Below the pieces are notes generated by a model, which was given only the letters and a program-made list of their open reading frames with translations, made no database searches and was not told the origin of the DNA. A DNA stretch of 64,000 nt. Origin: Eledone cirrhosa (Eukaryota). The translations under genes and the position numbers were made by a program. Location: contig OZ024745.1 of the NCBI GenBank assembly GCA_964016885.1, positions 32,116,001 through 32,180,000 on the forward strand, written 5' to 3'. The stretch's first letter is position 1, and every line of letters begins with the position of its first letter. This document shows, piece by piece, positions 8,939 to 37,166 of this stretch.

Positions 8939-8974
8939 CTTTTGAAAAGCAGAAGAACTGCGAAACCGGTAAAG
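8939..8974 (+). ncRNA. Minimal type I hammerhead ribozyme (U3-A8 core variant)
   Basis: CTT-TTGAAAA-GCAG(aagaa)CTGC-GAAA-CCG-GTA/AAG: short stem I, 4-bp stem II, palindromic stem III ACCGGT, GUA triplet, AATAAA just downstream. Confidence 0.7.
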
Positions 8975-9087
8975 GAACCAAATAAATATATATATTTAAA
9001 AAAAAAAATAAGACTCCAGTTGCATTTTCGATTTCATCTTTTTTTCTATATATATATATATATATATATATATATATATATATATAT

Positions 9088-9223
9088 ATCATGTTTAATA
9101 TAGAAAAGGCTTCTACAGGATTAGAACTGTTTCATTCAAAAGAAATCATCAGGAAAGCCTGATGATTTCTTTTGAATTAAACAATTTTAGTCCTGTAAAA
9201 ACCCTTTCTATATTAAACATGAT
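9088..9223. repeat. ~66-bp imperfect inverted repeat made of two head-to-head hammerhead-like units
   Basis: atcatgtttaatatagaaa...atcatcagg AAAG cctgatgat...tttctatattaaacatgat. Confidence 0.9.
9108..9159 (-). ncRNA. Type I hammerhead ribozyme fold
   Basis: Minus strand: GGCTTTC-CTGATGA-tTTC(tttt)GAAt-GAAA-CAG(ttctaatc)CT-GTA/GAAGCC; canonical core, 4-bp stem III, U.U closing pair in stem II. Confidence 0.6.
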
Positions 9224-9342
9224 GTTTACACTCTACTAATGTATTGAGTACCTTACTAACTGTGGTTACCCCCAATTGAACCCGGGACTCATATATATAT
9301 ACACACACACACACACATACACATATATATGTGAGTTTATAT

Positions 9343-9664
9343 ATTTGAAAATGTGGGAATTCTAGACACAGAAACAAAACTGTAACAACAGTCAATTGTT
9401 AAAAATAATAGCTTAGAAAATTGGGTAAAATACTCCATGGAGGTGGAAAAAAGTGGCCAATAACTGGTACAAAGAACCAAACTCCATATCTCTTGAATAT
9501 TTGCACATTATTTGAGAGATACGCAGGTTGACTGTCCATATCAGCTACGAGCCCCTTTTTTCTGTCTCCATGGGGTATTTTACCTAATTTTCTAAGCTAT
9601 TATTTATAGTGATTGACTGTTGTTACAGTTATTTTCTGTGACTGGAATCCCCACATGTTCGAAT
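9343..9664. mobile_element. Foldback/MITE-like ~320-bp imperfect inverted repeat
   Basis: Left arm ...ctgtaacaacagtcaat..aataatagcttagaaaattgggtaaaatactccatggag pairs with ctccatggggtattttacctaattttctaagctattatt..attgactgttgttacag; centre near 9503. Confidence 0.7.
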
Positions 9665-12164
9665 TTCAAATCGTGAAAGAGTGAGAGAAAGATGGAAAAT
9701 AACTGACCCCAATATTTCAATGGTATTTTATTTATCAACCCTGTGAGGATGAAAAATGTACTCGACTTTTGTAGGATTTGAACTCAGAATGCAAAGAGTT
9801 AGAACAATTAGCACAGCATTTGTTTGATGCTGTCAGTCTTTTTTTTTTAAATATATATCACAGAAAAGTATTTAATTTCTACAATATTTTTCTTCTGTAG
9901 ACTATATGCTTCCTGTCTCCATTTTACACCATTGCCAACAACTTAGCTATAAAATGCATGTGTGTGTGTGTGTGTGTGTGTGTGTGTGTGTGTGTGTGTG
10001 TGTGTGTGTGTATGTGTGCCAATAAAATCAATGCAATTACTCCAGTTGTGAGAAATAGCAGCCAAATCTCCATCAACACACACCCTGCTATCTTAAAAAA
10101 TGTTAAATTCACATCAGATAATAAAGTTCTCATTACAGCAAGTCTGACAAAGTAAAAAAAAAAGACTCAAAAGATGGGATGGTCATGAATGGAATGTTTT
10201 AATCATATAGGTCTAATAACAAGAACAGCAACTAGAGAAATAAGAGCATCCTCTTCTATATATCTGGTCTGTTAATCTGATAATAGAAAACATATGTACG
10301 AAGCAAAGGTGTAGTAAGAGGAGAAAAAGGAGGAAGGCGAGAAAGGGGAGAGATGGTGTGGGGAGCAACAGATGTCTTGAAATCTTCTTGAAGAAAGAGT
10401 CTATTTCAGCAAAACTGTAGCAGAGGTTCATTCATTGAATTTGATACTGTGAAGCTATCAGTACAAATATATAACATCTCTATTCCATTTTACAAAGACA
10501 GACATAATATATAACCCAAGTATTTTGTTTACTTTTTACTTTCTTATATTTAATACATCATCATCATCATCATCACCGTTTAACGTCTATTTTTTCATGC
10601 TAGCATGGGTAAGTCATTTATTTATGTTAACACACACATGCTGCGCTCAAACACACACACACACACACACACACACACACACACACACATATGCATGTTT
10701 ATGTGGAAATTTAGCTACTATTACTAGCACATACAAGTAACCATGTAAAGGCTCACTTGTTGCCCTACTTATTTTAATGATTCCTTCATCAGTATTGTTA
10801 TGAGGGGTGGATGTATTAGTAGAGCCTCTGACAAAATGTCTTGGGGTTTGCTGAGTACCAATTAAGGCAACTACAGCATCCGTTCCCCTATCCAATTTGT
10901 GGCCTTGTGTCAATATCAAAAGCCTAAATTATTATTATTATCATTCATAATGCTTTTGCTCTGGCAGATGCTATACCAACACAATACCAAAGAAGGGACT
11001 ATAGGTAATTGCCAAAGGTCCTTTGGGTCATTCCTGTTCCTTCAACTTCCTAACCCCCTTCTTAGAATCCTTGCTGTTTCTAACAAAGCTGTTTTCTGCA
11101 ACAATCCCATCATGAATTATGTGTTTTGTAATTGAGAAAAACAATTCATTTTACGTTGCTCCAGTATACTCAACAGAAAATGAGTACCGGCTGTAGCTGG
11201 GGGTTTAACACTTTGATAGACTTACATTATGTCCAGGGTGGAAGTAAATTAAGAATGGTATTCAGCCATAGAAACCATGCTAAAATAGAATTTATGAGCA
11301 GGACACAGTAGTCTGACCTGCCTGTCTAGCCTCAGAATGTGACAACCCATGCAAGCATGAAAATAAATGCAAAACGATGATGATGATGATGATGCTGTAC
11401 TCGATATAAATGGTAAAGAGCTGGTTAGATTTATGGAGTTATTTGGCACCTCATTGACAAGAGATCAAATTTTTTGGCTTTTCATTCCATCCAGAGTTAG
11501 GAAAATATATACATATTAAGATAGTCAAATGAATTATATTATATATTTGGCTTTATGCCTGTGCGGGGTCGGGATAGAACAAAAAGAACAAATCATATAT
11601 ATACGCCCACACCACCCCCTCAATTTCTCTGCCAACTAGATAAAAGGAATGTTATATCAGTTTTTATTAATCAACGATCTTTATCACAGACAGATATATA
11701 AGTGAGCGTACATGCTGGTGGAATTAGAAACATTACACAAAAACAAAAGACAAATTTTCACTAACAGACAGTTATGTTTTTTGATTTTATTTTTGTATGA
11801 AGGTATTATGGCTGTGTATGCAAATGAAAATGTGTGTGTGTGTGTGTGAGTATGAGTGTGAGTGTGTGTGTAAATATATATTTATATATATATATATACA
11901 TATATATATATATATAGAGAGAGAGAGAGATGTAGATATAGATATATGTAAAAAGGAAACAGAAATAACAAAGCAAACAACACAGTACAATGAAGAAATA
12001 TATTAGTTTAACACTTGGAAAGAATTTTAACGTTTTGGACACTAGTTCTTCATCAGAAGATAGAATAAAAAATAAAAGATGAAATAGAAAGATAAAGAGT
12101 GAGAAGAGGAAAAAAGAAAATTGAGAAAAAAACACACGTGCATATTCAGTCAGCCATATATATA

Positions 12165-35483: not shown

Positions 35484-35485
35484 AT

Positions 35486-35563
35486 ATTTAAAATATATGA
35501 TAAACACGAAATGTGTTTATATTGCAATATAAACACATTTCGTGTTTATCATATATTTTAAAT
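35486..35563. repeat. Perfect 78-bp palindrome
   Basis: ATTTAAAATATATGATAAACACGAAATGTGTTTATATTG|CAATATAAACACATTTCGTGTTTATCATATATTTTAAAT. Confidence 0.95.
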
Positions 35564-36019
35564 GTATTTAACTGCTCGGAAGAGCCCCTTTTCCTGGAGC
35601 TTAATTATTGTAAACGACAGAGTTTATTCTCAAAATATAATATAATATATATATATATATGTATATATATATATATATGTATATATATATATATGTATAT
35701 ATATATATACAGATATATGTATATGTATATATAGATATATGTATATATATATATATATATATGTATATATATATATGTATATATATATATATATATGTAT
35801 ATATATATATATATATATATGTATATATATATATGTATATGCAAAGGTTTTATTTAAAATCGTTGGGTTACAACAAGTAAATATTTTATAACTGATATAA
35901 AGCACTCGACAAGTTTTGGGAGTAGATATACGATATTAAACTACCAAGCCAGCCTCCTACCTTAATGGTCGCTATATTTATGGTACGTCAAAATTATTTA
36001 TAAAACTGGTTATATATTG

Positions 36020-36085
36020 TATTTTATCTGACGAAGGCATGCCATATTTTTAATATGGTATCCCTGAAATATGTATAATGAAATA
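36020..36085 (+). ncRNA. Type I hammerhead ribozyme, copy 1
   Basis: TATTTTAT-CTGACGA-AGGcATGCCATATT(ttt)AATATGGTATcCCT-GAAA-TA(tg)T-ATA/ATGAAATA; 8-bp stem I, 13-bp stem II, canonical core, predicted cut after 36077. Confidence 0.8.
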
Positions 36086-37100
36086 AATATGGTTTTATAA
36101 ATATAGTTTCCATTTGTTTAATATCGTATATATATATATATATATATATATATATATATATATATATATATATATGTATATATATATATGTGTATATATA
36201 TATATGTATATATATATATGTATATATATATATGTGTATATATATATATGTATATATATATATATGTATATATATATATATGTATATATATATATATATG
36301 TATATATATATATATGTATATATATATATGTATATATATATGTATATATATATATGTATATATATATATATATATGTATATATATATATATGTATATATA
36401 TATATGTATATATATATATATATGTATATATATATATATATGTATATATATATATATGTATATATATATGTATATATATATATATATGTATATATATATA
36501 TATATGTATATATATATATGTATATATATATATATGTATATATATATATATATATATATGTATATATATATATATATATATATATATATATATGTATATA
36601 TATATATATGTATATATATATATATATGTATATATATATATATGTATATATATATATGTATATATATATATATATGTATATATATATATATATATGTATA
36701 TATATATAAATATATATATATATATATAAATATATATATATGTATATATATATATATATATATGTATATATATATATATATATGTATATATATATATATA
36801 TATATATATGTATATATATATATATGTATATATATGTATATATATATATATGTATATATATATATATATATATATATATATATATATATATATATGTATA
36901 TATATATGTATATATATATATATATATGTATATATATATATGTATATATGTATATGCAAAGGTTTTATTTAAAATTGTTGGGTTACAACAAGTAAATATT
37001 TTATAACTGATATAAAGCACTCGACAAGTTTTTGGAGTATATTTAATGGTCGCTTATAATATGGTACGTCAAAATTATTTATAAAACTGTTTATATATTG

Positions 37101-37166
37101 TATTTTATCTGACGAAGGCATGCCATATTTTTAATATGGTATCCCTGAAATATGTATAATGAAATA
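37101..37166 (+). ncRNA. Type I hammerhead ribozyme, copy 2
   Basis: Identical to 36020-36085; predicted cut after 37158. Confidence 0.8.

Follow-up and report, generated by a model that had tools for sequence, protein, structure and literature searches.

Hammerhead motifs and their probable Penelope-like parents in a 64-kb window of the Eledone cirrhosa genome

Hammerhead ribozymes linked to Penelope-like elements (PLEs) have been described with U3–A8 cores, with one base added behind A9, and with a loop III that is palindromic (PMC4209133). The present analysis concerns seven such motifs in a 64-kb stretch of the 3.0-Gb genome of Eledone cirrhosa (contig OZ024745.1, positions 32,116,001 to 32,180,000; the whole stretch is termed the window), which has 32% GC and abundant TA/TG microsatellites and RTE-type long interspersed nuclear elements (LINEs). 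It is probable that the seven are type I hammerhead folds and that each lies in a pseudo-long terminal repeat (pLTR) of one of six repeat families, of which five could be linked to PLEs, with window copies that are short 3′ ends likely put into (TA)n by the elements' own endonuclease (EN) and reverse transcriptase (RT), and with a mechanism that makes mini-copies from the transcription start site. The motifs are genuine hammerhead folds of a known kind, and the window is typical of the genome; the parts worth following are the genome-wide hammerhead load and the pile-ups of 5′ ends, which occur just upstream of the ribozyme in three of the five families examined and are likely new.

The motifs resemble the published PLE-linked hammerheads in the U3–A8 variant, the additional nucleotide that separates position 9 from 10.1 and the small palindromic helix III, and also in their setting, with many families per genome, mostly single motifs on truncated PLEs, and close opposite-strand pairs. 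All motifs here retain a short helix III, a point of difference from the published PLE hammerhead survey, in the available portion of which no cephalopods were found. Animal non-LTR retrozymes (PMC7229834; Li et al. 2026, bioRxiv 10.64898/2026.07.22.740005) are also short non-coding pLTR-derived units with a type I hammerhead, but they form head-to-tail tandem repeats processed to circles, whereas the copies described here are single or head-to-head and five of the families are tied to an open reading frame (ORF). The Poseidon element PAc of Anolis (Frangieh et al. 2024, PMC11167929) shows the same two 3′ ends separated by a tail, AT-rich targets and an uncleaved template, and its tail lies inside the ORF start, as in family D below; it was studied in vitro and belongs to a different clade, and a genomic start-site pile-up of 5′ ends was not found in the available part of that report.

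Hammerhead folds and their statistics

A strict type I descriptor (C3–G8, U3–A8 or U3–G8 core; stems I and II of at least 3 bp) recovered five of the seven motifs listed in the initial annotation, at 8939 (+), 21378 (−), 31245 (+, originally placed at 31240), 36020 (+) and 37101 (+). The other two are hammerheads only if variants are allowed. The motif at 27773 (+), whose stem II has 5 bp and whose loop III is palindromic, passes a relaxed rule under which stem I may consist of two 2-bp blocks on either side of a mismatch, and this broken stem is the native form of its family; the motif at 9108 (−) passes an extended rule permitting a U10.1–U11.1 pair, described in natural hammerheads (PMC3088659), and a 4-bp stem III. 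All seven have the conserved core and three helices, with stem I open. The helices had been called unrelated in sequence while pairing around a common core, which is true of several families; 36020 and 37101, however, carry one and the same motif, which brings the number of families from seven down to six, labelled A to F in the list below.

8939–8974, plus strand: hammerhead A; U3–A8 core, C3 position at 8942, stem II of 4 bp, palindromic stem/loop III, H17 at 8971
9108–9158, minus strand: hammerhead E; C3 at 9152, U10.1–U11.1, stem III of 4 bp, 8-nt loop, H17 at 9114
21378–21422, minus strand: hammerhead D; C3 at 21417, extra nucleotide after A9, stem I of 5 bp, stem II of 6 bp, H17 at 21383
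27773–27820, plus strand: hammerhead C; U3–A8 core (27778), stem II of 5 bp, weak stem I, H17 at 27815
31245–31291, plus strand: hammerhead B; U3–A8 core (31249), stems I and II of 4 bp, H17 at 31287
36020–36085, plus strand: hammerhead F1 (the motif at 37101 being F2); C3 at 36028, stem I of 8 bp, long stem II, H17 at 36077

The explanation that these are chance folds in AT-rich DNA would fit the weak stem I of A and C and the minimum-energy predictions, in which the full hammerhead is obtained for F1 and F2 only and nearly so for E, while A, B, C and D (four of the seven motifs) fail to give it; that last result speaks against the folds, and it is expected with a helix III of 2–3 bp. The window, however, holds 5 strict motifs against 0.2 ± 0.44 (maximum 2) in 60 local dinucleotide shuffles, and a control sample of 36 10-kb pieces, taken at round coordinates on 18 chromosomes (359.8 kb), holds 24 against 0–4 (about 2) in 8 shuffles. 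Covariation was followed in 19 F-related variants, hand-picked among 29 listed: 9 of 19 pairs change on both sides around an invariant core, and 93.9% of cells are paired against 38–52% for slid controls, the shuffle count being no probability, as the sequences are related and the structure is drawn from the window copy. Helix covariation among copies thus holds within the F-related subfamilies, and the palindromic loop III recurs in many families. Chance folding, already refuted by the shuffles and the covariation, is extremely improbable.

An Rfam scan of the window gave no hammerhead family among the 150 of 602 matches listed, which are dominated by microRNA models on TA repeats; standard annotation would overlook most such motifs. 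AATAAA lies 3′ of the motif in four of the seven cases, in agreement with the initial annotation, and was rejected as the elements' poly(A) signal on the reasoning that it abuts stem I and that the tail of family D runs into the ORF. Further hammerhead families were seen at loci L110, L091, L004, L449, L143, L176 and L266, with U10.1–U11.1 and perfect six- or eight-base helix III palindromes, and the U–U pair is recurrent across unrelated hammerhead families.

Repeat families, their parents and insertion sites

The islands carrying the motifs are bounded by TA tracts in the window, as first described, and were thought to be unique; each is instead a dispersed repeat, and they fall into six dispersed families rather than seven. 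BLAST-type genome searches returned 473–4831 candidates per island, and exact 26–30-nt patterns from the 3′ part matched the genome 10,640 times for A, 933 for E, 4,615 for F, 915 for B, 18,268 for D and its relatives and 1,382 for C, inverted arms being counted twice. The best copies of B and C are 98–99% identical, so these two families are young. A search of RNA runs for family B listed none containing it, a result given no weight here.

The proposed PLE origin is borne out by parent ORFs for five of the six families. An RT followed by a C-terminal GIY-YIG domain lies upstream of the motif in A, B, C, D and F, with an unbroken RT–EN frame only for F and frames in pieces for the other four. 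Two motifs had been reported downstream of co-oriented GIY-YIG remnants, and these lie at 26240–26506 (plus strand; Pfam GIY-YIG, E=3e-5) and 21844–21755 (minus strand). Longer copies of family C contain an RT with YLDD, a C-x4-C-x2-C linker and GIY-YIG, and in a family A locus (L286) a decayed RT–EN frame of C's type is continuous through the 3′ untranslated region (UTR) into the motif. Family D, whose longer copies encode RT and GIY-YIG in a protein 22% identical to that of C, is the only window family for which a complete pLTR–ORF–pLTR element with a hammerhead in each pLTR was found (locus L297; the two repeats share 97% identity across 1195 bp, and their hammerheads lie at 3703 and 7790); its tail corresponds to the first ~30 codons of the ORF. 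Family F has an open 750-aa frame (locus L294) with RWR, DKT, YRDD, CxCx5C-type, CxxC and CxH motifs, whose nearest atlas clusters are GIY-YIG/RT proteins, and the ORF upstream of B has the same Hydra-clade motif set, DKT and RWR being observed in F only. Pfam gave no useful match for these Hydra-type ORFs of B and F. A young Hydra-type family with an open 750-aa frame would offer a substrate for studies of (TA)n targeting.

Judged by these motifs, B and F probably belong to the Hydra clade and A and C to the Neptune clade, with D uncertain. The Neptune-type label of A and C is our assumption from their RT motifs. Like Hydra-clade PLEs (Craig et al. 2021, PMC8557442), B and F combine the CxCx5C linker, CxxC and CxH with a hammerhead, (TA)n insertion and no CCHH. 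F also shares DKT with that clade and has RWR where the clade has RWK (PMC8557442); element F is ~4 kb long as against generally <3 kb, and the tails measure 90–108 nt as against 30–40 nt. A, C and D resemble the Neptune and Nematis clades of the same study in their C-terminal GIY-YIG, CX2-5CxxC linker and internal cysteines and histidines (CCHH); the linker is common to both clades, which the motifs here do not tell apart. Beside some of the queried copies lie PLE ORFs of other families (L278 upstream, L287 at 8428–9900, and L327), comprising a Poseidon-like remnant and more Hydra-type frames. The window's PLE families were not found catalogued in the literature searched, where the supplementary family lists of PMC8557442 and PMC13282606 could hold relatives; the latter, an octopus repeat annotation, lists Penelope-like families, and the word 'ribozyme' is absent from its main text as far as available. 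The window copies, with putative clade labels, are as follows.

8901–9046, plus strand: family A copy; tail-less short end of a presumed Neptune-type PLE, beginning at the family 5′ pile-up (~40 nt above C3)
9089–9285, both strands: family E copy; two head-to-head arms, 9094–9155 (minus) and 9158–9285 (plus, with tail), G12 being lost from the hammerhead of the plus arm
21229–21976, minus strand: family D copy; last 30 GIY-YIG codons (21844–21755), 3′ UTR, pLTR with hammerhead, and inverted tail (21872–21969) equal to the ORF start
26239–27961, plus strand: family C copy; single 5′-truncated, presumed Neptune-type PLE with the C-terminal half of GIY-YIG (26240–26506), a microsatellite-rich 3′ UTR and the pLTR
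30318–31342, plus strand: family B copy; inverted tail (30318–30429) and 918 bp of the 3′ end of a putative Hydra-type PLE
35844–36126, plus strand: family F copy 1; inverted tail (35844–35941) and forward part from the family 5′ pile-up (35940), putative Hydra-type parent
36959–37207, plus strand: family F copy 2; inversion junction different from that of copy 1, hammerhead F2 at 37101–37166
37232–37396, no strand assigned: family A tail hairpin; truncated below the hammerhead position, no hammerhead

The ends of the copies have PLE architecture, and the RTE-type LINEs of the window were accordingly rejected as mobilisers. TA lies within 150 nt of the 3′ anchor in 29–30 of 30 F copies, 29 of 30 B copies and 28 of 30 D copies, and TA or a TG/CA repeat does so in 30 of 30 A copies and 27 of 30 E copies; in the controls, (TA)5 occurs no more than 300 nt downstream of 22 of the 24 strict motifs, against 15.6% of 1322 random positions. 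The (TA)n targeting suggested initially is in this respect confirmed. Each family has two alternative 3′ ends, with or without a tail (60–108 nt apart in B, D and F), which match the two internal initiation sites defining the tail in vitro (PMC11167929). Of 30 F copies, 11 have the tail 3′, another 11 have it 5′ and inverted, and no copy has it on both sides, with inversion junctions that vary between copies; this inverted 5′ copy with an optional tail is the published PLE pattern (PMC8557442). No exact same-strand second copy was found within 1.5 kb in 30 loci of each of A, B, D, E and F (150 loci), copies being single or head-to-head, and the suggested link to tandem animal non-LTR retrozymes was rejected on this ground. 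In A, B, D and F the two alternative 3′ ends seem to coincide with short AT/TA stretches inside the element, a hint at microhomology with the (TA)n target in priming.

5′ ends of the short copies and their explanation

The islands had been interpreted as ribozyme-bearing mini-elements. Five of the six are 5′-shortened ends of ORF-bearing PLEs rather than separate mini-element families, and the description stands in modified form for A, E and F, which have many copies of fixed short length. Ends were mapped in five families (A, B, D, E and F) on the first 30 genome matches of the pattern 3′ of the cleavage site, the 5′ end being defined by how far each copy follows a long natural copy (in E, one of the 30 is the reference itself). 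They pile up at −45 to −34 relative to C3 in A (15 of 30), at −7 to −1 in E (14 of 30) and at −91 to −82 in F (10 of 30). Exponential truncation, simulated 2000 times, never reached these counts. In the window, the copies of A, E and F1 belong to this fixed short type. TATAAA lies at −72 in A and −37 in E, ~30 nt above the pile-ups, and CCAAT boxes lie at a greater distance on the same side; no end falls within 3 nt of the cleavage site in A, B, D or F (0 of 30 each). Upstream of the ribozyme there are promoter-like clusters: the family A pLTR at L286 contains repeated CCAAT boxes and sites that we take, by eye, to be E2F-like and E-box sites, and the family D pLTR at L297 contains sites presumed on the same footing to be NRF1-like, ETS-like and YY1-like. 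The positions of these genomic ends suggest that the A, E and F mini-copies derive from uncleaved, start-site-initiated RNA.

In the mechanism proposed, the pLTR would hold the promoter and the pile-up would mark the transcription start site, so that the ribozyme would lie in the 5′ UTR, 7–90 nt below it. Reverse transcription would prime internally at the tail, either at the first tail site of a start-site-initiated capped RNA or on a short transcript of a pLTR that is solo or stands 3′, and the RT would run off at the RNA 5′ end to leave a fixed-length mini-copy of ~140–280 nt; the longer, variable copies of B, C and D would be ordinary 5′ truncations. Because the mini-copies keep both ribozyme halves, we infer that the template was mostly uncleaved, cleavage presumably requiring a dimer or the element's protein. 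An uncleaved template is in line with the inactivity of PLE hammerhead monomers (PMC4209133) and with in vitro work in which hammerhead mutants still insert and uncleaved RNA is the main substrate (PMC11167929). For the role of PLE hammerheads, the 5′ ends of thousands of genomic copies would give a direct readout of the RNA that was copied. Start-site pile-ups of PLE 5′ ends were not found in published reports by a literature search that did not reach Repbase, Dfam or most subscription journals.

Several observations weigh against this reading. B (3 of 30, p 0.63) and D (5 of 30, p 0.19) have no significant pile-up. In F, two of the 10 piled-up ends (L447 and L448) may show where subfamilies diverge, and another two pairs each come from the arms of one insertion; another cluster, near −228, is clearly an artefact of this kind. 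F has no TATA at −30; an initiator-like element at +1 and a downstream promoter element (DPE)-like motif at +28 are our reading by eye against consensus sequences. In E, 3 of 30 ends are no more than 3 nt away from the cleavage site, which hints weakly at cleavage. No ORF parent was found for E in 25 + 30 copies examined; a sister subfamily extends for a pLTR of ~440 nt and then into a TA/TG tract, beyond which 30 copies share no unique sequence.

Two other explanations of the fixed ends have to be weighed. Were the short copies self-propagating non-autonomous mini-elements, retrozyme-like monomers or akin to short interspersed nuclear elements, spread from few masters, the shared end would record descent and not a start site. 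About half of the A and E copies are of the fixed-length form, the missing parent of E would be accounted for, and the short F copies keep the DPE-like motif downstream of the start, which could allow re-transcription; the same families nevertheless have long members that extend into the ORF, each copy tends to have an inversion junction of its own, same-strand tandem copies are lacking in all five families mapped, and the short copies of A and E do not take in the TATA box. This origin is unlikely, though it deserves to be kept in view. The pile-ups might alternatively arise where the RT stalls at RNA structure or where the copy has microhomology with the TA/TG target, since that of E coincides with the 5′ strand of stem I and that of A opens with TG-rich sequence similar to the target. 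Junctions between two arms, where the target is not involved, nevertheless end at the same point in A and F, and the ~30-nt TATA spacing is common to two unrelated families, which makes stalling or microhomology a distinctly unlikely cause and leaves the start site as the preferred one.

Genome-wide load and other features of the window

The window had been regarded as a (TA)n landing pad for such elements. With the extended rule the controls contain 35 motifs against 1–4 in 6 shuffles, and the window contains 6; for 64 kb this corresponds to 4.3 strict motifs expected and 5 observed, and to 6.2 extended motifs expected and 6 observed. Landing-pad enrichment was rejected, as the motif density equals that of the 36 control pieces despite microsatellite contents of 24% in the window and 8% in the controls. 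Extrapolation gives ~180,000 strict or 270,000 extended motifs genome-wide (bootstrap range 130,000–440,000), from a sample that is small and clumped and with insertions fewer than motifs. A scan of all collected loci, a set biased by the queries, gave 587 hammerhead matches and dozens more motif types.

The extrapolated load (1.3–4.4 × 10^5 in 3 Gb) is above the counts met in the literature: ~2,000–9,000 per genome in the published PLE hammerhead survey, against ~10^5 estimated here; ~9,000 in Xenopus (PMC4209133); ~5,000 in mussel and, at the most, 120,000 in axolotl (PMC7229834); and 235 Rfam hammerhead hits in giant squid. No published count of PLE hammerheads in an octopus genome was found, within the same limits of the literature search as above. 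We put forward tentatively, at somewhat less than even confidence, that hammerheads are denser in this genome than in any animal reported so far (about one per 11–15 kb, at least 10^5, in dozens of PLE families), that a large part of them are start-site-to-tail mini-copies of uncleaved PLE RNA made by an RT running off at the cap, and that the genome would thus record each family's start site and a ribozyme mostly uncut in vivo during transposition; some minis (E and F) may be self-copying elements of 140–280 nt.

Several neighbouring features were seen in passing. A stretch at 35482–35635, with one distant relative in L356, consists of an 86-bp hairpin and a unique stretch ending in TA, and resembles a tail from a further PLE-like family, cut off below the ribozyme. 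Elements are nested in each other's internal or flanking TA/TG tracts at L114, L144 and L280 and in the window at 21966–31968, and degenerate (TA)n arrays of 0.6–2.4 kb lie beside several insertions. An open frame of 897 codons (counted from the preceding stop) at 32431–35121 on the plus strand belongs to an RTE-type LINE and covers an RT, a PHD-like finger and the final part of an endonuclease domain; its relatives lie at 18338–21123, 12164–13390 and 60348–63274. A tandem array at 2148–2568 comprises seven copies of a 59-bp unit with 98% identity.

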